Shown here in pieces: positions 29,195 through 63,217 of a stretch of 64,000 bases of DNA (its first letter is position 1; each line of letters starts with the position of its first letter). The notes beneath the pieces are model-generated. The model was given only the letters and a program-made list of their open reading frames with translations, made no database searches and had not been told where the DNA came from. The stretch is taken from assembly GCA_964505555.1 (NCBI GenBank), contig CAZDIO010000102.1, forward strand, positions 13,355 to 77,354, given 5' to 3'. The translations under genes and the position numbers were made by a program. The DNA comes from an uncultured Bdellovibrionales bacterium. GTDB taxonomy: Bacteria; Bdellovibrionota_C; UBA2361; SZUA-149; CAZDIO01.

Positions 29195-29335
29195 ACGGCC
29201 ATTAAATTAAGGATCTGAAAGAAAGATCTATAGAACCACAGAGACACAGAGCCGCAGAGAAGATTAATAAAATCCCTTTCCTCTGTGTCTCTGCGCCTCT
29301 GTGGTTTAATAAAGAATCTTTAACTTAATGGCCGT
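29195..29335. repeat. B-type palindromic intergenic element, copy B1
   Basis: Outer inverted repeat acggccattaaattaag / cttaacttaatggccgt. It encloses ccacagagacacagagccgcagagaag ... ctctgtgtctctgcgcctctgtgg. It starts 10 nt after the UbiD-family stop. Confidence 0.85.
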
Positions 29336-30395: not shown

Positions 30396-31259
30396 CTACT
30401 GCAGCAACGTCAACGCCAAGGCTGGCTGTTGATTTGCTTGTGCTAATACTGAAGCACTTGCTTGCTGGAGAATATTTAGTCGCGTAAGTTCCGCCGCTTC
30501 GAACGCTACGTCAACGTCACGGATTCGACTTTCTGCAGCGAGGAAGTTTTCTCGAGCCACTTGCAAGTTACTAATCGCCACATTCAGCCGACTCTCGGTA
30601 GAACCCAATGTTCCTCGAGACGCTGTCAAACTTCCGATGGCGAGGTTAATAGCATCAAGAGCTGATCGTGCAGAGATCTGAGATTCATTCGCCGTTGCCG
30701 CCAAGATCGAAAACAACGGTATAGAACTCCCCTCAACTGCCAACCCAATTGATGCCAAGGTAGCAGAAACTGCAGAGTAGGATACCTGTGAGGTAGTCTG
30801 CCCATCAAACCCTACCTGAAACACCGTCTGTGCTCCTCCAGAGAGAAGGTTTACACCGTTAAATTCAGTTGTTAAGGCGATTCGCTCAATTTCGCTTGAG
30901 AGCGCGAGAAACTCTAAATGCAACGCAGAACGTTGGGTGTTACTAAATACACCGTTGGCTGATTGTTCAGCAAGCTCTGCAAGCCTTGTTAATACGTTTC
31001 CGATCTGCTCCATCGCACCGTCAGTAATGGAGATCATCGAAACACCATCGCTTGCGTTTCGTATGGCGACAGTAGCTACTCGAGAATCTGAACGCAGCTG
31101 ATCGGCGATCGCAAGTCCAGCAGCATCGTCTGATGCTTTGGTAATTCGCAAACCGGACGACAACCGCTCATAGGCTTTCTGTAAACGATCCGTTGTTGAA
31201 CTTAAGTTTCTCTGCGCAGTAAGCGAGGAAACGTTAGTCCGTATATTAATTGTACCCAT
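30396..31259 (-). CDS. fliC: Flagellin (short form, no hypervariable domain)
   Basis: N-terminal INIRTNVSSLTAQRNL...RLSSGLRITKASDDAAGLAIA and C-terminal LTRLNILQQASASVLAQANQQPALALTLLQ. SD aaggaggg. Confidence 0.9.
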   Translation of the reverse strand: MGTINIRTNVSSLTAQRNLSSTTDRLQKAYERLSSGLRITKASDDAAGLAIADQLRSDSRVATVAIRNASDGVSMISITDGAMEQIGNVLTRLAELAEQSANGVFSNTQRSALHLEFLALSSEIERIALTTEFNGVNLLSGGAQTVFQVGFDGQTTSQVSYSAVSATLASIGLAVEGSSIPLFSILAATANESQISARSALDAINLAIGSLTASRGTLGSTESRLNVAISNLQVARENFLAAESRIRDVDVAFEAAELTRLNILQQASASVLAQANQQPALALTLLQ

Positions 31260-33063: not shown

Positions 33064-33126
33064 TTGAACACAGAGTTTCACAGGGTTACACAGAGTAAAG
33101 ATTTTAAAATTCAACTCTGTGTTCAA
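33064..33126. repeat. A-type palindromic element, copy A1 (right arm truncated)
   Basis: Full left arm ttgaacacagagtttcacagggttacacagagt; the right arm is reduced to ctctgtgttcaa. It lies between convergent genes. Confidence 0.85.
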
Positions 33127-33171
33127 ATAAGATCGGAATGACCTTAGAGCTACCTTCATATTTCTTATTCA

Positions 33172-33414: not shown

Positions 33415-33882
33415 TTACTCTCTACTTAATTCTTGTAGCGCTTCAATATCGGCGAGATCTTGTGGTCGACCCGCTTCTTGTTTCATTCGAATAAGATCTG
33501 ACAATGAAAGAAGGGAGATACTTGTTTGCTGAACCCGAACACGTTTTGTTCTTTGGGTCGAAAGATCATGGGTAATAATGATGTCAACAAGCTCTGCTGG
33601 AGTACGCGGATTTACAAAACTCCATGCAGTAAGGTTTCGATTCTTAATGTACTCCTTTCGAAATTTAAACACCTCTTTGGCGGTGATCGGAAGCTTTGCT
33701 TGAAGGCCGATACTATTTAGCGCCGCTTCCGCCTTTATAAACTGCTCCTCTTCAAAACGAAGAATAATGTCAATGTCGAGCGTTCCTCGTACCGCCCCAT
33801 GAAGAGATACGGCATATCCACCAACAAGTGCATACTTAACGTGGTTCGTATCTAAGGCCTTAATAACGCTTAAAAGAAACAT
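33415..33882 (-). CDS. Nucleotidyltransferase-fold protein (AbiEii/DUF6036-like), putative toxin partner
   Basis: N-terminal YALVGGYAVSLHGAVRGTLDIDIIL (the GG...G..R.T.DiD NTase signature) and C-terminal LIRMKQEAGRPQDLADIEAL. It lies 6 nt upstream of the BrnA-like gene. Confidence 0.5.
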   Translation of the reverse strand: MFLLSVIKALDTNHVKYALVGGYAVSLHGAVRGTLDIDIILRFEEEQFIKAEAALNSIGLQAKLPITAKEVFKFRKEYIKNRNLTAWSFVNPRTPAELVDIIITHDLSTQRTKRVRVQQTSISLLSLSDLIRMKQEAGRPQDLADIEALQELSRE

Positions 33883-36657: not shown

Positions 36658-38235
36658 CTAAACGCTACGATTCCTTTCTCGTTTTCTTTTCCAAGTTTCA
36701 AAGTCTACTACCGCAATTTTTTTTGCAAGCTCCTCACGAACACATCCTTCAACCGCTTCATGAAGACTTCTTCGATCAAGAGCGGTTTTTAAGCAGTTCA
36801 TCTTCTTTTCAACCTGATCATAGAGGTTTGAAAGAGACTCAGAAGAGAGTGTTTTTCGATAGCGATCGACTTCGGTAGAGAGGTATTCCTGATACTCTTT
36901 TTTCTCAACTGGATTGGCCTCTCCCCGCCCGCTAGAGATTGGGGCTTTTGGAAAGTCCCGCCCAGTATTTTTAAGGATTTTCTCTTCAAAACTCCGGGGA
37001 ATAATGAATTTATGTGGAGTTTCTACTGCCCGATAGAGAAAACCTACCCGATTTTTTGAGACTTTCGTATCATTTGTTTGCACAAGAAAATCGTAATAGG
37101 AGATGATTTTATCAACTTGTAAAAGTTCTGCGGCGTTTTTTTCACTGAGCAGCCGTTTTGCTTGCGAGAGATGAATGCCTCGCGAAAGCAGAGCTTCAAT
37201 GGCTCCTTGTCGTTGTGATTCTAGATCAGTAGAACTGCGTTGGGAGGAATCTTTTTGAAAAACAGGGGGCGAAGAAAGGATAAAGCTTCCTTGCTGCGTG
37301 TGATTTCTAGGAAGAGGGCTCTCTGTTTGCTGGAGATGTTTTTGAGATACGATCTCTTTTCCGGAATGAAAGCGCACAACGGTCTCTACGCCCCTACCTG
37401 CAAACTCATAACTTGAGAGAAACCCAAGCGCTTTTAACTCCTCGCACGCTGGTTCAATTTGTTGCTTAATCTGGGAGATGTATTGATAACTTCGAGAAAG
37501 TCCTAACTTCTCAAAGGCAAAGGTAACAAGTGGTTTTTCAATACTTGATTTGTAGTAAAAATGCTTATCAAGATACCGGTAGAGCCTTCGACTTACAGCA
37601 CTTCGAAGTGAGAAATAAAGGGTTAAATCAAGCTTTTTTATAAACCCTGATTTAAAAGAATGAAAAAGTGCCTCACTCCAAATAAAATAACTCTTTGAAG
37701 CCTCAGCCCCAGAGAGGGCTTTGTTCCCTCGCCCATCGTTTATTTCGTAGGCATCGATAATTCCGAAATTTCTTGTTTGATAGGCTTTTGAAGCATTATC
37801 AAAAAACGCATTTGCTGCCCGAATTCGAACCCCGCTTAAGCGATCAAGTGATTTTGTAAGGCGGGAGTAGCTTCGCCCTTCTGTGGTCCAGCGTAAGATT
37901 CCTAAAAGCTCATACCGGGTAAAATATACCTTTCGGTTTCGAAACCCTTGATCCATCGTTAACCGCATCAAGCCAAGAAGGACATCATCATCCGTAGCGG
38001 TGGGGAGTCCAAACTTGTCTGCCCCGGTAATAATCCACTGGCGTTCAATCACCTCCCCACTGGGGAGCCGTTGGTTGTCACGAAACTCAAGGGTTTTTAC
38101 CTTTGAGTTTGTGCGTGTCGAGAGAACCGCGAGGGGAAACTCTGCAAGGTTCATCTCATCACGTGAGGTAAGCACTACCTCGGATGAGGAGACTTCACGA
38201 TCTTCGGCTCTTTGTTGGTAGAGGGTTTGCTGCAT
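36658..38235 (-). CDS. Replication initiator protein A-like (plasmid-type RepA)
   Basis: The N-terminal region EMNLAEFPLAVLSTR...WIITGADKFGLPTATDDDVLLGLMRL matches my recollection of the 'replication initiator protein A' family. It is divergent from parAB across a 0.9-kb non-coding region. Confidence 0.6.
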   Translation of the reverse strand: MQQTLYQQRAEDREVSSSEVVLTSRDEMNLAEFPLAVLSTRTNSKVKTLEFRDNQRLPSGEVIERQWIITGADKFGLPTATDDDVLLGLMRLTMDQGFRNRKVYFTRYELLGILRWTTEGRSYSRLTKSLDRLSGVRIRAANAFFDNASKAYQTRNFGIIDAYEINDGRGNKALSGAEASKSYFIWSEALFHSFKSGFIKKLDLTLYFSLRSAVSRRLYRYLDKHFYYKSSIEKPLVTFAFEKLGLSRSYQYISQIKQQIEPACEELKALGFLSSYEFAGRGVETVVRFHSGKEIVSQKHLQQTESPLPRNHTQQGSFILSSPPVFQKDSSQRSSTDLESQRQGAIEALLSRGIHLSQAKRLLSEKNAAELLQVDKIISYYDFLVQTNDTKVSKNRVGFLYRAVETPHKFIIPRSFEEKILKNTGRDFPKAPISSGRGEANPVEKKEYQEYLSTEVDRYRKTLSSESLSNLYDQVEKKMNCLKTALDRRSLHEAVEGCVREELAKKIAVVDFETWKRKRERNRSV

Positions 38236-39136
38236 GAAAAAAAATGAAACAAAAAAATTTTAAATTAACTTCAAGTCGTTTGTTATTTTGGTACAACGTA
38301 CATCATAGTTCTTCAACAAGAAGTTTTTTTATAAGTACGTACGTTAGGAGAGAAATTATTCAATCTTTCTAGTAAGTTAAGCCAGAAAATTTCTTTCGAT
38401 TCCCGAATCTTTTGGGCTCAGATCACGATGGACTTGAAGTCAATTCACTTGAGCACTTATCTCATTTCATGAGATTTTTATTCTCCTGCCTAACTTTCTT
38501 ACTTCGACTCTCGACATTGTGAAACCAAAAGCGCGAGATTTTTATGTAAGGCTCTCTGGAGCCTCTAACATGAGTCAGATAGCCAAACATTCCGGAGAAA
38601 ACGGTAGGTGGTCACGGTCATTAAGTTAGTTCCTGTCCATAAAAGCCAATTTTGAGTCCAAGGTCGATTGAACGGCCACTACTTCTAAACTTACTCTGTG
38701 GTTTTATAAAATCTTCTTTCAGACCCTTAATGACCGTGGGTAAGAAACTCTATTTTAGTAAAGTCTCTTAGTTCATTACTCGAACCCTTATTTCAATACA
38801 CGCCTATTTGACCATTTTTGGTTATTCCATTTCACGAACAGCAGCCAAACAAAAACCACAAGATATTCTAACATATTGAAATTATTAATATAATCAGATA
38901 TTCGTGGTTTAATTGACCTCCAAAGATCGCATTATTCTGGGAATGTTCGAGCTTCGAAATAAGTACTGATCACGTTTATAAGCGAGCTTTTGAAAGATGA
39001 TTATTTCAAAGCACGCTACTTTTTGGCCACTAGGTAGGTTTCTTTACTGTTTGGAAGCTTTAGTTTAAACCAGTTATTGTTTAATTTAACCTCTGCCAAA
39101 ATCTCAACTCTTGAGTAACGAAGCTGTAAGGTGGCC
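38236..39136. other. Candidate replication-origin / partition-site region (non-coding)
   Basis: This is the longest ORF-free stretch in the window. It is visibly AT-rich (A/T runs at 38236-38275 and 38870-38905) and has short palindromes at 38459-38475 (atctcatttcatgagat) and 38549-38564 (aggctctctggagcct). The RepA-like gene and parA flank it. I could not define clean iterons, DnaA boxes or a full parS by eye. Confidence 0.35.
38613..38738. repeat. B-type element, decayed copy (B2)
   Basis: Outer inverted repeat cacggtcattaag / cttaatgaccgtg. The right half, ctctgtggttttataaaatcttctttcagacccttaatgaccgtg, parallels B1 and B3; the left core is eroded. Confidence 0.6.
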
Positions 39137-39913
39137 ATGGCAAAAGTCTTTGCAATAGTGAATCAAAAGGGGGGAGTTGGAAAAACTACCACCGCTGCAA
39201 ATTTGGCCGCCGCGCTATCTGAGCGAGGTCAAAAAGTGCTTGTTATTGATCTTGATGCTCAAGCAAATCTCTCTGCTCATTTTGGAAGTTCCGTAGATGA
39301 TCAGAGTGAGCAGCTTACAATGTATGATGTGCTCAGGCACAACGCCCCGATTGAAAAAGCAATAATAAACCTCTCTTCGAACTTAAGTATCGTTCCTGCA
39401 AGCCTCCTACTAAGTGCTGCAGATTTAGAGCTTGGTGGTGTTATCGGTCGTGAGTTACTTCTTAAAAAAGCTCTTCAACCGGTAATTGATGACTATGATT
39501 ACACGATCATTGATTGCCCACCCTCACTGGGGATGCTCTCCCTCAATGGGCTTGTTGCTGCTTCACGAGTTATCGTTCCTGTTCAAAGTGAGTTTTTAGC
39601 CCTTCACGGCGTAAGGCAGCTTCTTGATACGATTGACCAGGTACGAAGTGCCTACAACCCCTTACTTGCTGTGGGTGGAGTTCTTCTCTGTCTTCATGAT
39701 TCAAGAAGGAGACTGGCGCGGAGTGTTGCCGATACGGTGCGCGAATATTTTGGAGATCTTGTTTTTGAAACTGTCATTCGCACAAACGTTGCCCTTGCTG
39801 AAGCACCTGCCCAGGGGGACTCAATTTTTCAATACGACCGCCGCTCAAGCGGTGCTGAAGATTATGCTAGCCTTGCAGAGGAGATACTAAGCCGTGGCAA
39901 AAAAGAAGGTTAA
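39137..39913 (+). CDS. parA: ParA/Soj-type partition ATPase
   Basis: Deviant Walker A NQKGGVGKTTTA; size and colinearity are those of chromosomal Soj. I prefer ATG 39137 (MAKVFAIVNQKGG) to the track's GTG 39131. Confidence 0.9.
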   Translation: MAKVFAIVNQKGGVGKTTTAANLAAALSERGQKVLVIDLDAQANLSAHFGSSVDDQSEQLTMYDVLRHNAPIEKAIINLSSNLSIVPASLLLSAADLELGGVIGRELLLKKALQPVIDDYDYTIIDCPPSLGMLSLNGLVAASRVIVPVQSEFLALHGVRQLLDTIDQVRSAYNPLLAVGGVLLCLHDSRRRLARSVADTVREYFGDLVFETVIRTNVALAEAPAQGDSIFQYDRRSSGAEDYASLAEEILSRGKKEG

Positions 39914-40814
39914 ATTCAGTGTAAACCCACTTCTTGGGGGACCAAGTCTTGCATCACGAGCAAAGATGGGGAGCCCTTATCGGGAGCTTTTAATCGACGA
40001 GATCGATTTTGATCCTGATCAACCGCGACGAGTATTTAATGAAGAGCGACTTCAAGAGCTCGCTGATTCAATTAAAGAACACGGAATCATCTCACCAATA
40101 CTTGTTAAAGTAACAGAAGGGGGAACCTATAAGCTTGTATCTGGAGAGAGAAGACTTCGTGCCTCAAAAATTGCTGGATTAGAATCGATCCCCGCAGTTA
40201 TTGAAGACGATGATAAAAGTAGTGATGTAACCCTTCCTAAGCAGCTTGTAGAAAATCTCCAACGAGAAGATCTCACCGTAATGGAGAGGGCGATCGCTAT
40301 TGGCCAACTACGAGATGCTTACAAATTGAGCATTCGTGAGATCTCCTCAAAGCTTTCCATTTCAAAAGGACTCGTTCAGAGAAGCCTTGAAGTTCTCGAT
40401 CTCCCAGACGATCTTCAAGCAGCGTTAATAAACGGTGCCTCAGAGACGAAGATTCTCGTTTTAGCGAAAGTTTCGAATCGTGAATTGAGAAAAGAATTTA
40501 TCGCTCAACTTGATAATTTCACCCGAGCACAACTTGAAGAAGAGGTAGATCGGGTTACGACACTCTTAAATGGCGACAAAGAAGAGGTGTACCACGGTGG
40601 TACACCTCGTAGTCGAAAAAATGGAAGAAATAAACTTTCCCCTCAAGATGAGCAGTTAATTAATGATTTAAAAAACAAACTAGGAACAAGAGTTTCTTTA
40701 ATGCGCAGTCGTGGCAAAGAGGGGCAGGGGAAGCTGATGATCGAGTTCTATTCAGATAACGATCTAAGCGAGATCTTTCGACGACTTTGTCGAACCGCTA
40801 GCGATTCTCTTTAA
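39894..40814 (+). CDS. parB: ParB/Spo0J-type partition protein
   Basis: ParB-box blocks GIISPILV and VSGERRLRASKIAG, plus an HTH region. It overlaps parA by 20 nt. Confidence 0.9.
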   Translation: MAKKKVKFSVNPLLGGPSLASRAKMGSPYRELLIDEIDFDPDQPRRVFNEERLQELADSIKEHGIISPILVKVTEGGTYKLVSGERRLRASKIAGLESIPAVIEDDDKSSDVTLPKQLVENLQREDLTVMERAIAIGQLRDAYKLSIREISSKLSISKGLVQRSLEVLDLPDDLQAALINGASETKILVLAKVSNRELRKEFIAQLDNFTRAQLEEEVDRVTTLLNGDKEEVYHGGTPRSRKNGRNKLSPQDEQLINDLKNKLGTRVSLMRSRGKEGQGKLMIEFYSDNDLSEIFRRLCRTASDSL

Positions 40815-43716: not shown

Positions 43717-43781
43717 GTCCAAGTAAACACCTGTTTCTCTCTAGGGCGGGTTGGCTAAAGTACGTCGGGCTGTTTTTTTAA

Positions 43782-43869
43782 TGAACACAGAGTTTCACAG
43801 AGATCCACAGAGTAAAGAAAAAAGCTTTTAGATTTAACTCTGTGTAACCCTGTGAAACTCTGTGTTCAA
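43782..43869. repeat. A-type palindromic element, copy A2 (left arm diverged)
   Basis: tgaacacagagtttcacagagatccacagagt ... actctgtgtaaccctgtgaaactctgtgttcaa. Confidence 0.85.
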
Positions 43870-44020: not shown

Positions 44021-45376
44021 ATGATCGTTACTGATTCACCATTTCGCACGCAATATAGCGCCAATAACGTTGCAATTCGAAACGGAGCAACAAGTACTAC
44101 GCCGGCGCAATTTAGTAATCTTTCTTTTCTTCGATCGACACCACCTTCTTTACCTTCAAGCAATCTCCTTGCCCCATCAAGTAGCGGAGGATTTGTTTCT
44201 CAAGTGCAGTCGATGCTGCAGCAAGTTTCGGTGCTGATGGATCTCATCGGTGCCGCAAGACAATCAGATCAAAGTGCTGGGGTTAGTCTCCTCGATGGGG
44301 CGAAACTCTTTTCTCAAAATGTTTCTCAGGAGCTTTTTAACCTTCAGACAAGAGGAGGTATCGGAGGGGTTTTTGATGCTGTTCCGACCTCTATAGATAG
44401 TCTTGGTACTGCCGCTCAACAGTACGTTCTTGGGAACCTCAAGCGAGAGTTTTTTGACGCAGTTGGTGAGGCGTTTGGGGTGGATGTTTCACAGCTTTCT
44501 GTAACAGATCTTGCCAATTTGGCTTATGAAAGCGTTTTTGGAGAGGGAACATCGCTCTCTAGTACCCTCTCAGATGGGGTGGCAGGAATCTTCTCCGGTC
44601 AGGATCCCTTTGTAGCAGGAGAACTTAGTGGAGAAATTGGTGGAGAAATAAGCACTGAAGTAGGCGGGGCAACTTCAGGAATTGGCCAATTTACAGGCGC
44701 TTTAGCAACCGCGTATTCTCTCTATGGAATAATTAATGACTGGGGAAAGAGCACCCCAGCCATGGGTGCGATGCGAGGTGCTACGGCTGGAGCGTACATC
44801 GGGAGTATTATTCCAGGAGTTGGAACTCTTATCGGAGGTGCCATCGGTGGGGTTGCGGGGGCGATCTCTGGATTGTTTCATAGTGGGAAGCATAAAAACC
44901 AGATTCAACGCGATCAGGTTCGAGAGTTTTTAAGAAATGCCCAAATTATCGATTCAGATAACTCCCTTCAGTTAGCAAATGGTGAACGTTTTGATATCGG
45001 AAAAGATGGAGGTGCTCGCTATCTTGGACTTGACGGAGTTGAGAGACGACCCTACGTGACTGACCCTTCAAATCCACTTACCGCTGAGGCGATAGGGCTT
45101 GTAAATCCGTTAGCAATAATTCTCACCGGAGGTGATCCTGGACTTTCTTCAGCTTTTGCAGGGTATTTTAGTAATGCCATCGTCAGTAACGCACAAGATC
45201 TCGAAGGCGTCCGCCAAAATGCCTTGGCGATATTCTCAAAATTTCAGGTTACCCCAGAGCAATTGATCGCTGGCTTAGAAAATCTTACTGCCTCCGGCAA
45301 AATCCCCCCAGAAGATTTTGCTGCATACGCAAACGGGGTAAGAACTCTCCTTGAAGGGTTTTCTTCACCTTCATAA
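44021..45376 (+). CDS. Glycine-zipper-containing protein of unknown function; candidate secreted pore-former/effector
   Basis: 451 aa. The N-terminus is Ser/Thr/Pro-rich with no hydrophobic signal (SPFRTQYSANNVAIRNGATSTTPAQFSNLSFLRSTPPSLPSS). The central segment GAMRGATAGAYIGSIIPGVGTLIGGAIGGVAGAISGLF is a GxxxG ladder. SD gggagg. Confidence 0.6.
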   Translation: MIVTDSPFRTQYSANNVAIRNGATSTTPAQFSNLSFLRSTPPSLPSSNLLAPSSSGGFVSQVQSMLQQVSVLMDLIGAARQSDQSAGVSLLDGAKLFSQNVSQELFNLQTRGGIGGVFDAVPTSIDSLGTAAQQYVLGNLKREFFDAVGEAFGVDVSQLSVTDLANLAYESVFGEGTSLSSTLSDGVAGIFSGQDPFVAGELSGEIGGEISTEVGGATSGIGQFTGALATAYSLYGIINDWGKSTPAMGAMRGATAGAYIGSIIPGVGTLIGGAIGGVAGAISGLFHSGKHKNQIQRDQVREFLRNAQIIDSDNSLQLANGERFDIGKDGGARYLGLDGVERRPYVTDPSNPLTAEAIGLVNPLAIILTGGDPGLSSAFAGYFSNAIVSNAQDLEGVRQNALAIFSKFQVTPEQLIAGLENLTASGKIPPEDFAAYANGVRTLLEGFSSPS

Positions 45377-45390
45377 GAAGCGTTAGATTA

Positions 45391-45479
45391 TTGAACACAG
45401 AGTTTCACAGGGTTACACAGAGTTTGAACTATCTTACTTATCCCACACTCTGTGTAACCCTGTGAAACTCTGTGTTCAA
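45391..45479. repeat. A-type palindromic element, copy A3 (loop inverted relative to A4)
   Basis: Perfect 33-bp arms with loop ttgaactatcttacttatcccac. It starts 15 nt after the upstream stop. Confidence 0.9.
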
Positions 45480-45546
45480 CCTTCCTTTTTTGCTCAAAAA
45501 GTTTAAAAACATCTTTACTGCTATATCGAATAGTGATATTAATCTA

Positions 45547-45708
45547 GTGGTGATTCGATCGTACAAAAACATTGGCACACGTGATATTGCTGAGAATTCG
45601 AAAGCAGCGCGGCGACTGTTGCCGCAACCATTTAATGCTCAGTATCGCATTTGCTTTCTTTGGAATGGCATTGATGCTGACGCAGTTGAAATAGTGGATT
45701 ATCACTGA
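45547..45708 (+). pseudogene. higB: HigB-like (RelE/ParE superfamily) toxin remnant with an apparent internal deletion
   Basis: The ends match HigB (VIRSYKNIGTRDIAENSKAA... and ...YRICFLWNGIDADAVEIVDYH), but only ~53 codons remain against roughly 90 in the family members I recall, so the central part is missing. The track's GTG start at 45472 lies inside repeat A3 and is unlikely to be real. Confidence 0.45.
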
Positions 45709-45732
45709 GAGATTACAAAAAAGGGCTTCAGC

Positions 45733-46026
45733 ATGTTGAAACCTAGGCGTGTTATAGCAGTGCATCCTGGAGAGATGCTTGAAGAGGTTCTTAAACAGAA
45801 CAAGATTAGCCAATCTTCCCTTGCCGCTCATCTCGGAGTTACTCAAGCAAAGATCAACGAAATCTGTCGTGGTAAGCGAGGAGTGACGCCAGATATGGCG
45901 ATGAAGTTCGGTAAAGCTTTTGGACAGAGCCCAATGTTTTGGATAAATATCCAAAAAAATTGGGAGATGAGCCAGCTCGATGAATCTGATTACAAAGACA
46001 TACAACGGATAAAATGTCGTGCGTAG
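45733..46026 (+). CDS. higA: HigA-family HTH antitoxin
   Basis: Colinear with HigA/VapI: HPGEMLEEVLKQNKISQSSLAAHLGVTQAKINEICRGKRGVTPDMAMKFGKAFGQSPMFWINIQ. Confidence 0.85.
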   Translation: MLKPRRVIAVHPGEMLEEVLKQNKISQSSLAAHLGVTQAKINEICRGKRGVTPDMAMKFGKAFGQSPMFWINIQKNWEMSQLDESDYKDIQRIKCRA

Positions 46027-46142
46027 AAAGCAAGTAAAAGGATTTTACTGGACTTCTGCTGATGCACGGCGACTGCATTTGCTCTCTATTTGAATCCCGA
46101 CTGAGGATCTGGAGAGTTTTATTAAATTACAGCTTATGATTA

Positions 46143-46232
46143 TTGAACACAGAGTTTCACAGGGTTACACAGAGTGTGGGAATAATTAAGATAATTTAAA
46201 CTCTGTGTAACCCTGTGAAACTCTGTGTTCAA
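46143..46232. repeat. A-type palindromic element, copy A4
   Basis: Perfect 33-bp arms with loop gtgggaataattaagataatttaa, roughly the reverse complement of the A3 loop. It shares the flanks gatta... and ...ccttccYtttttgc with A3. Confidence 0.9.
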
Positions 46233-46306
46233 CCTTCCCTTTTTGCCTGTGGGCATGTGGAGTTACCGATTGCTCTAAGAAAAATCATTGATGAAGGCCA
46301 ATTAAG

Positions 46307-46325
46307 CTGAGGCAAATTGCCTCAG
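46307..46325. promoter_or_regulatory. 19-bp perfect palindrome upstream of the sigma/T3SS operon (candidate operator)
   Basis: ctgaggcaa-a-ttgcctcag, about 160 nt upstream of the sigma factor GTG. A 1-nt centre makes an RNA hairpin unlikely, so a dimeric DNA-binding site is the simpler reading. Confidence 0.3.
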
Positions 46326-46482
46326 TAGATTCAAAATGCATCAGCGATCATTATTCTAACCCTCTGAAACTGTTCAGATCTTCTTTCACACCAAAGTTGG
46401 CATGACCTTGCAATAGAAACGGTAGGTTCTTGCTACAGGTTCTTTTTGTTTTTTAGTCAGAAAACTTAGCAAGGAGGACTTT

Positions 46483-54379: not shown

Positions 54380-54457
54380 TGAACACAGAGTTCAACAGAG
54401 GAAAGAAAACAAACCAATAATTTTAACTCTGTGAAACCCTGTGAAACTCTGTGTTCA
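54380..54457. repeat. A-type palindromic element, copy A6 (left arm degenerate)
   Basis: tgaacacagagttcaacagagg ... ctctgtgaaaccctgtgaaactctgtgttca, between convergent genes. Confidence 0.8.
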
Positions 54458-54516
54458 TTATAAAGAAACTAATCAATACTTACGGAATCCTTTTTTGGGA
54501 ATGATGTTCAATCTGA

Positions 54517-63070: not shown

Positions 63071-63217
63071 TTAGGGTTCTGGAAGAAAGATTATAAAACC
63101 ACAGAGACACAGAGTCGCAGAGAAGATCAACAAAATCCTTTTCTCCGTATTCTATCTCTGTGTCTCTGTGTCTCTGCGTCTCTGTGGTTTTATTAAAAAT
63201 CTTTAATTTATGGCTGT
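63060..63217. repeat. B-type palindromic element, copy B3
   Basis: acggcgattagttagggttctggaagaaagattataaaaccacagagacacagagtcgcagagaag ... ctctgtgtctctgtgtctctgcgtctctgtggttttattaaaaatctttaatttatggctgt. It is colinear with B1, and its left end overlaps the last codons and stop of the upstream CDS. Confidence 0.85.

Follow-up and report, generated by a model that had tools for sequence, protein, structure and literature searches.

Foldback repeats with mutually inverted loops around a toxin-deficient higBA remnant in an uncultured Bdellovibrionales bacterium

The locus described here consists of two copies, A3 and A4, of a non-coding foldback repeat that lie on either side of a higBA toxin–antitoxin (TA) remnant in an uncultured Bdellovibrionales bacterium. 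It was analysed within one 64-kb window of one genome, from contig CAZDIO010000102.1 of the metagenome assembly GCA_964505555.1, and positions are those of that window unless a contig is named. Repetitive extragenic palindromic (REP) sequences are palindromes of 20–40 bp, one end of which bears a GTAG or CGTC tag that stays unpaired (Di Nocera et al. 2013, PMC3733652), and REPINs are REP doublets that form hairpins (Bertels & Rainey 2011, PMC3116915). The bacterial MITEs (miniature transposable elements with inverted repeats), including Correia elements and ERIC, form a further group (reviewed in PMC3184786). TA modules bracketed by recombination sites are also known, namely the dif modules of Acinetobacter plasmids (PMC6449649, PMC13141974) and the TA cassettes of integrons, among them higBA of the Vibrio cholerae superintegron (PMC5543033, PMC4032106). 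The arrangement at the present locus is probably best explained by two foldback repeats of the same subfamily, located 3′ of consecutive genes and with the loop of one of them flipped, around an acquired higBA module whose toxin is dead.

A3 (45379–45493) and A4 (46131–46246), neither of which is assigned to a strand, were delimited by palindrome and direct-repeat finding, tests of loops and flanks, and RNA folding; an independent contig, L004, was also used for A4. Each unit comprises a left tag, a left arm, a loop, a right arm and a right tag. In A3 these are the tag AGCGTTAGATTA at 45379–45390, the arm at 45391–45423, the loop at 45424–45446, the arm at 45447–45479 and the tag CCTTCCTTTTTTGC at 45480–45493. 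The corresponding parts of A4 are AGCTTATGATTA at 46131–46142, the left arm at 46143–46175, the loop at 46176–46199, the right arm at 46200–46232 and CCTTCCCTTTTTGC at 46233–46246. The palindromes proper span 45391–45479 and 46143–46232, and their 33-nt arms are identical between the two copies. The palindrome finder returns arms of 36 nt for A3 (45391–45426 and 45444–45479, 97% complementary) and of 33 nt for A4 (46143–46175 and 46200–46232, 100% complementary). Folded as RNA, the A3 hairpin reaches −61.2 kcal/mol (z = −12.6), and the tagged units come to about −61 kcal/mol.

The flanks, designated X (AGCKTWKGATTA) and Y (CCTTCCYTTTTTGC) and arranged X-palindrome-Y, are common to both copies. 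The left flanks agree in register at 9 of 14 positions (P ~0.003) and the right flanks at 13 of 14 (P ~2.5e-5), as judged against random pairs of 14-mers from the window. The left halves of the units form a direct repeat of 48 nt at 92% identity (45379–45426 and 46131–46178) and the right halves one of 47 nt at 98% (45447–45493 and 46200–46246), with a spacing of 752/753 bp. An initial sequence-only reading of this DNA had described the identical arms and the shared non-palindromic flanks correctly. It had also recognised that the unit as a whole is directly repeated, but had put its length at ~105 bp; the coordinates give ~115 bp.

Within these directly repeated units, the loops are approximate reverse complements of each other, as the same reading had proposed. 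The A3 loop, TTGAACTATCTTACTTATCCCAC, is identical to the reverse-complemented A4 loop at 20 of 24 positions with one indel, and the alignment scores 15 in this orientation and −5 in the direct one. The similarity is significant, as none of 20,000 shuffles attains a score of 15 in either orientation. Independently, the inverted match of the repeat finder runs on into the loops, over 54 nt with 93% identity and over 39 nt with 100%. The copies show no difference across the 66 nt of the arms and eight differences across the 50 nt of tags and loops (16%; P ~1e-5 under equal rates), and the arms have therefore been either homogenised or constrained. One of the two loops appears to have been turned round within its tags through an exchange between the perfect 33-bp arms. 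Such an exchange could have come about by recombination within one molecule, or when replication switched templates across the palindrome. A putative promoter within the A4 loop (TACACA, 18 nt, GATAAT) was considered, but scored no better than shuffled sequence.

The flipped arrangement recurs elsewhere. An Anaerolineales genome and related metagenome contigs carry similar hairpins with fixed asymmetric tags, ..AACTAATTAR on one side and TTCCTGTTTTAG.. on the other, which invert together with the loop. Tag and loop are concordant in orientation in 15 of 18 copies of this Anaerolineales-type family and discordant in the remaining three, two of them clearly so (L046 at 6887 and L082 at 7292). 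The recurrence of this discordance in an unrelated lineage favours an intrinsic process by which the spacer between perfect arms becomes inverted, and it lends weight to the proposal that the loop of A3 or A4 was flipped in this way.

A3 and A4 are members of a dispersed repeat family, which the sequence-only reading had overlooked together with the insertion of the whole block. A scan of the window finds the 33-nt arm nine times with up to three mismatches, where none is expected, and the family has at least eight copies: six of type A (A1–A6) and two of type B. The type A arm is built from three 10-bp units (CACAGAG-TTT, CACAGGG-TTA and CACAGAG-T), giving a hairpin of ~89 bp. The window contains 21 occurrences of the heptamer CACAGAG and 23 of its complement, against ~3 expected. 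Each of the eight copies follows closely on the stop codon of a plus-strand gene, and the intergenic regions concerned are tandem or convergent; A3 is placed after a native 451-aa gene and A4 after higA. No transposase, integrase, recombinase or RAYT is found among the ~50 Pfam-annotated open reading frames (ORFs) of the window.

Comparison of the remaining type A copies clarifies the status of the tags. A2 (43781–43869), whose left arm bears four substitutions, and A5 (53184–53272) belong to one subfamily by loop type and flanks. They are 9.4 kb apart, with a whole secretion operon and many native genes between them. Their loops are of the same type and align in direct orientation with a score of 15; the right flanks match at 15 of 19 positions, a value reached by 6 of 2,000 shuffles, and the left flanks at 9 of 14 in register. 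These shared flanks, together with the fixed tags of the Anaerolineales-type hairpins, indicate that the short non-palindromic tags are part of the element and define subfamilies. The common flanks of A3 and A4 are therefore, on their own, no demonstration of a local duplication, and the two can simply be two members of one tagged subfamily. The proposal that a unit was directly duplicated around higBA is weakened to that extent, while the direct repeats themselves stand.

The other copies differ in arm length or in the phasing of the heptamers. A1 (33064–33127) has a right arm that lacks two 10-bp units, and A6 (54381–54458) has a left arm reduced to two units; each is short of one or two units in one arm only. 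The resulting asymmetric hairpins fit slippage between phased heptamers, as far as can be judged from their sequences. The second subfamily, B1 (29237–29303) and B2 (63100–63186), carries the heptamer at 8-bp spacing, and the B1 palindrome runs on into its flanks. The B units read CACAGAGA CACAGAGC CGCAGAG, with the palindrome continuing into the flanks AAGATT..AAACC / GGTTT..AATCTT. A B-type half copy is located near 38694–38725, within the putative replication origin region.

The closest described relatives of these repeats in general character are REPINs and tagged REPs. Both are short, non-coding, multi-copy extragenic repeats that lie mostly 3′ of genes, between tandem or convergent ORFs, and in both cases inverted arms and a spacer give a long hairpin. 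Both also form subfamilies within a genome and carry an asymmetric tag beside the palindrome. The location at the 3′ end of a plus-strand gene holds for 8 of 8 copies. The arms differ from those of REPINs in that they consist of tandem direct 10-bp units, are 33 nt long and pair perfectly, rather than being short palindromic REPs; a single arm folds at only −0.3 / −0.5 kcal/mol, i.e., it contains no internal palindrome. The GTAG/CGTC tag is absent beside the palindrome at five of six copies (units of 78–90 bp), and the single CTAC near A2 is out of register. As noted above, no RAYT was seen among the annotated ORFs of the window.

Bacterial MITEs share with the repeat a length of ~90–130 bp, terminal inverted repeats, the lack of coding capacity, and dispersed intergenic copies that are absent from the orthologous sites of relatives. 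The copies here have 33-nt inverted arms, measure 78–90 bp, contain no ORF and number eight. No direct repeat of 2–10 bp abuts the palindromes, the tagged units or the A3–A4 composite as a target-site duplication would; two 2-nt matches emerge only when the boundary is shifted. Unlike MITEs, the copies have conserved non-palindromic tags beyond the inverted repeats, and neither the window nor the loci examined yielded a parent insertion sequence whose ends match. In eukaryotic foldback (FB) transposons, long inverted arms are made of short tandem subrepeats whose number varies from copy to copy. The build of the arms is similar, but FB transposons belong to another domain of life and another size range, and homology is not implied. 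The A-type repeat is best regarded as an unnamed variant of REPIN/MITE-like repeats.

The segment between A3 and A4 contains a TA cassette of the type II HigBA kind (TIGR02607, PF05015), with the toxin-first gene order, an antitoxin of 97 aa with a helix-turn-helix (HTH) domain and an upstream operator-like palindrome. It departs from that type in its toxin, which lacks the central 45 codons and has no match to the family model. The promoter/operator-like region (45514–45545, plus strand) consists of TTTACT, 17 nt and TATTAA, and overlaps a degenerate palindrome, CTATATCGAATAG. In alignments it is conserved upstream of higB in the homologous contigs L002 and L001, with 88% identity to L002 over 26 nt that include the operator-like palindrome (E = 0.001). 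This conservation indicates that the cassette arrived with its own control region. A consensus promoter scan made no call at 45514–45545.

The toxin gene remnant, higB′ (45547–45708, plus strand), has 53 codons from a GTG start at 45547 to a stop at 45708. A homologue search with the 53-aa product gave no candidates in the word index, and the partner toxins of HigA homologues were used instead. Protein and DNA alignments with these toxins reveal in-frame deletions of 6 nt and 129 nt, which together remove 45 central codons. The remnant retains ~26 N-terminal and ~24 C-terminal residues of the HigB-like toxin, and these two ends align with the 98-aa partner toxin of L002. Its ORF matches neither PF05015 nor any other Pfam model even at E ≤ 10; the closest HigA homologues whose locus could be read (L002 and L001) have partner toxins that match PF05015 at 40.2 and 44.9 bits, with a cut-off of 27 bits. 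Since both ends are kept and the middle has been lost in frame, higB′ is a deletion derivative and not a short-form toxin. The decay of HigB suggested by the sequence-only reading is thereby borne out, and the alternative of a full-length short-form toxin is excluded by the alignment.

The antitoxin gene, higA (45733–46026, plus strand), encodes a full-length HigA-family protein. It matches TIGR02607 at 82.8 bits (cut-off 47.7 bits) over model positions 4–79 of 81, has the same length of 97 aa as its homologues, and agrees with them at all 42 columns that are invariant among 12 sequences; its description as intact is upheld. HigA is presumably expressed. Horizontal acquisition of the module, followed by inactivation of the toxin to leave an orphan HigA that looks intact, is the probable history. 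Chromosomal TA modules often drop the toxin and retain the antitoxin. The L001 locus (1690–1989) has a higB with a 1-nt deletion near its 5′ end, and the L003 locus (700–1011) has a higA of 77% identity that overlaps the end of a NuoE-like gene and is not accompanied by higB. Toxin loss among the close HigA relatives looks recurrent.

Between higA and A4 lies a tail of 104 nt (46027–46130, no strand assigned) with no similarity to the sequence 3′ of higA in L001–L003 or to any other part of the window. A motif in this tail, GCTGATGCA / GCTGATGCACGGCGACTGCAT (46057–46080), was considered as a half-site of the sigma-54 upstream palindrome (GCTGATGCAAATCGCGAC in the related contig L188) and rejected; its spacing is 7 nt rather than 3, and the resemblance is probably due to chance. 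The G+C content of the cassette is 0.414, and that of the window 0.433.

The site occupied by the block can be defined from both sides. The native upstream gene (44021–45376, plus strand) encodes the 451-aa protein, which has a glycine-zipper region. Its orthologue in L188 has 63% identity over 243 aa (E = 1e-96) and lies 190 bp from the sigma gene that follows, and the L188 contig contains neither the CACAGAG heptamer nor higBA. On the other side, downstream of A4, is the native control region of a sigma-28-like / type III secretion operon (46307–46412, plus strand), which is conserved in three related contigs. It contains two upstream palindromes (46307–46325 and 46328–46345) and an intact sigma-54-type promoter, TTGGCATGACCTTGCA, at 46397–46412. 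Four loci (window 46307–46412, L188 756–945, L189 5796–6000 and L190 5776–6000) share a TTGGCAYG-N4-TTGCA promoter and two upstream palindromes of the TGAKGCA-N3-TGCMTCA type. The empty junction in L188 and the intact promoter after A4 identify A3–higB′A–A4, of ~0.9 kb, as an insertion relative to L188. On the basis of these comparisons, the block has been inserted between the native gene and the regulatory region of its neighbour.

Downstream of the promoter is a sigma-28-like gene, the first of a non-flagellar type III secretion cluster (SctJ, SctQ-like, SctV and a TPR protein). Such a sigma gene and cluster are also present in three distant relatives. The homologues of the sigma gene are distant, with at most 51% identity; L188 is the best of their loci, and one named relative is a Bdellovibrionales metagenome-assembled genome.

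The proposed course of events can be outlined as follows. Non-coding REPIN/MITE-like foldback copies would settle just 3′ of genes, A3 after the 451-aa gene and A4 after higA. The higBA cassette would have been acquired horizontally with its own promoter/operator, and the toxin gene would then have been inactivated by the in-frame internal deletion of 45 codons. The block of ~0.9 kb would thus have come to lie upstream of the sigma-54-type promoter of the type III secretion operon, with the loop of one repeat inverted by arm exchange. The manner in which the repeats spread, the mechanism of flipping and the order of these events are proposed as the likeliest course rather than read directly from the locus. 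Several points weigh against this account. A3 and A4 are adjacent and are mutual closest relatives, which also fits a single local duplication or the integration of a cassette. Neither a transposase nor a duplicated target site nor a transposition intermediate was seen in the window, and mobility would rest on dispersal and on absence from relatives that are only 40–50% identical at the protein level. A2 and A5 are modestly similar in their flanks, the contig stems from metagenomic assembly, and the census of copies covers 64 kb of one genome.

An alternative with some appeal, although a less likely one, is that a circle carrying higBA and a tagged repeat recombined, by site-specific or homologous means, with a resident copy 3′ of the 451-aa gene. 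By a logic resembling that of integrons or Xer-dif, this would leave two direct 115-bp units, with the loop flipped at the crossover or later. The full-unit direct repeats at 752/753-bp spacing do bracket exactly one TA cassette with its own promoter, the block is missing from the orthologous site in L188, and A3 and A4 are each other's closest relatives. As in the dif modules and integron cassettes cited above, a small TA module is bracketed by partly palindromic repeats, and the replicon encodes RepA/ParAB. At their ends the palindromes read ATTGAAC / GTTCAAC, which agrees with the attC R-box consensus (RYYYAAC / GTTRRRY) at 6 of 7 positions. Yet the stems pair perfectly, with none of the extrahelical bases by which attC is defined, the 64 kb contain no integrase or recombinase, and the copies are separated by native operons. 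The best dif-like match has 8–9 mismatches in 28 positions, and the best matches to the dif and pdif consensus sequences, with their XerC/XerD 11-6-11 core, have 8–11 within 45300–46320, though the organism's own dif may differ. Other copies flank ordinary native housekeeping genes rather than cassettes, no contiguous cassette array is present, and the tags shared by A2 and A5 arose with no cassette between them.

Assembly could also have created the arrangement, by threading higBA between palindromes that belong to another part of the genome or to a different strain. The exact 33-nt arms are repeated throughout the region of a metagenome contig, the HigA and 451-aa proteins are on record from one NCBI contig only, and the G+C content of the cassette is slightly lower than that of the window. 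In addition, L004, an independent Logan contig of the same organism (SRR13076517), breaks inside the right arm of A4, which indicates that exact 33-nt arms fragment short-read assemblies. An artefact is nonetheless improbable. At 89–90 bp, each palindrome with its unique loop and flanks would fit within a typical read and should be resolved. A3 and A4 differ at eight positions outside the arms, and both copies therefore exist in the data. L004 is moreover identical to the window from 46212 into the sigma gene (compared over 46212–47600). Marginally less probable again is the insertion of two palindromes, independently and in opposite orientations, into a 26-bp direct repeat (X-Y) that was in place around the cassette beforehand. 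The two orientations of an inserted perfect palindrome can be told apart only by the loop, and inversion would not be needed. Such insertions would require strict target specificity, yet the flanks of the other copies are unrelated, and no uninterrupted X-Y exists in the window or in the fetched loci. This account also needs more events than its competitors, and flipped loops within fixed tags occur in another family.

The palindromes might instead be functional sites, either RNA 3′-end hairpins that terminate transcription or stabilise mRNA, or protein-binding arrays of the RepA/ParAB replicon, that insulate higBA. All eight copies are found just 3′ of genes, the hairpins are very stable, and A3 and A4 are followed by a tract of six or five T. 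With their phasing of 10 bp, the heptamers all point to the same side of the helix, and ParAB are present on a stretch that yields no canonical parS. The canonical parS is a 16-bp palindrome, TGTTNCACGTGAAACA, which has no match with up to three mismatches in the 64-kb window. The arms hold GTTTCAC / GTGAAAC, separated half-site-like pieces of parS. This explanation is the least probable of those weighed here. The terminator scan, limited to stems of up to 20 pairs and loops of 3–8 nt, called none of the copies, and the T tract begins 7 nt past the stem and is absent from the other copies. Copies are missing in relatives that keep the operon and its promoter, similar elements in other genomes are far too numerous for centromeres, and the origin region contains no array. 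The observations in its favour are also compatible with a selfish origin. A more specific reading of the repeats as partition sites or iterons was rejected, given the absence of parS from the window and of an array from the origin region.

Arrays of phased heptamers are found well beyond this lineage. The pattern occurs in more than 115 stretches of GTDB representative genomes from many phyla, and a tighter version in at least 68 metagenome stretches. Permuted heptamers searched in viral contigs gave 10, 81 and 10 matches against 16 for the real heptamer, and match counts alone therefore mean little. A cross-phylum heptamer deduced from the GTDB matches was rejected on this ground. The one distinctive feature is the frequent inverted pairing within 120 bp, found at 55 of 115 GTDB loci, 26 of 68 metagenome loci and 0 of 101 control loci, the controls being drawn from the viral contigs, a different collection in which the real heptamer pairs at only 1 of 16 loci. 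In the look-alike arrays, three to five phased CACAGAG units are followed by an AT-rich loop and then, in mirror image, by CTCTGTG units. Their spacers, loops and tags are lineage-specific, and ~40–50% of the arrays are paired with an inverted partner no more than 120 bp away. Hairpins of the same build are present in genomes of Bacteroides, Anaerolineales, Parabeggiatoa, Chitinophagaceae and Bdellovibrionota; the loci include L008, L015, L021, L032, L045–L047, L057, L058, L060, L064, L075, L082, L145, L147, L170, L175 and others. Another locus, L171 (7400–9150), has ~22 same-strand half-elements of four CTCTGTG units each with a period of ~72 bp; its interpretation as a CRISPR array was rejected, the spacers being low-complexity T/A runs.

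Searches for a named relative of the repeat gave little. The exact 28-nt arm has no match in the GTDB representative genomes, a collection that does not include the source species, and a BLAST search of A4 against a plasmid collection returned no match. Rfam gave nothing at gathering thresholds; at E-value thresholds, generic hairpin models of microRNA precursors appear below their cut-offs. A literature search with 15–17-mers of the repeat returned nothing, and 7-mers gave only primer noise. No transposase was found beside the similar arrays in L035, L046, L049, L131 and L147. It is conceivable, though doubtful, that phased CACAGAG foldbacks make up a widespread, unnamed class of palindromes whose perfect arms make the loop intrinsically invertible and which, as recombination sites, capture modules such as higBA between copies with no need for a dedicated integrase. 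Such a class would take in Bacteroidota, Chloroflexota, Parabeggiatoa, Bdellovibrionota and the present lineage.

A RepA-type initiator (PF10134, minus strand), a non-coding gap of 0.9 kb, ParA and ParB follow one another at 36658–40814, and this region lies exactly at the minimum of the cumulative GC skew. The replicon also carries hemB, hemD, icd, ubiD, serA and the secretion system, and in this it resembles a chromid or secondary chromosome more than a small plasmid. Pfam annotation of the ~50 ORFs of the window identifies polysaccharide, haem, central-metabolism, flagellin and type III secretion genes besides the RepA/ParA/ParB origin. The repeat is absent from a large polysaccharide or O-antigen-type cluster at 1–25000, which has aminotransferases, glycosyltransferases, a Wzy-like polymerase and a flippase-like protein. 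A flagellin gene (30396–31259) is located near the non-flagellar secretion cluster. A DUF6036 nucleotidyltransferase-like gene (33415–33882, minus strand) adjoins A1 and may be part of another small module of the toxin–antitoxin type.

The higBA remnant is in itself routine. The repeats that surround it have an unusual build, with phased heptamers in each arm and asymmetric tags, and lack defining features of REPs, REPINs, MITEs, attC and dif. If the look-alike arrays in other lineages are homologous, an unrecognised mobilising or binding protein would be implied. Near-identical repeats whose loops are inverted within fixed flanks, together with the same arrangement in an unrelated family, provide natural evidence of spacer inversion in vivo. 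The inversion of spacers by short perfect palindromes in vivo bears on the evolution of palindromes and quasi-palindromes.

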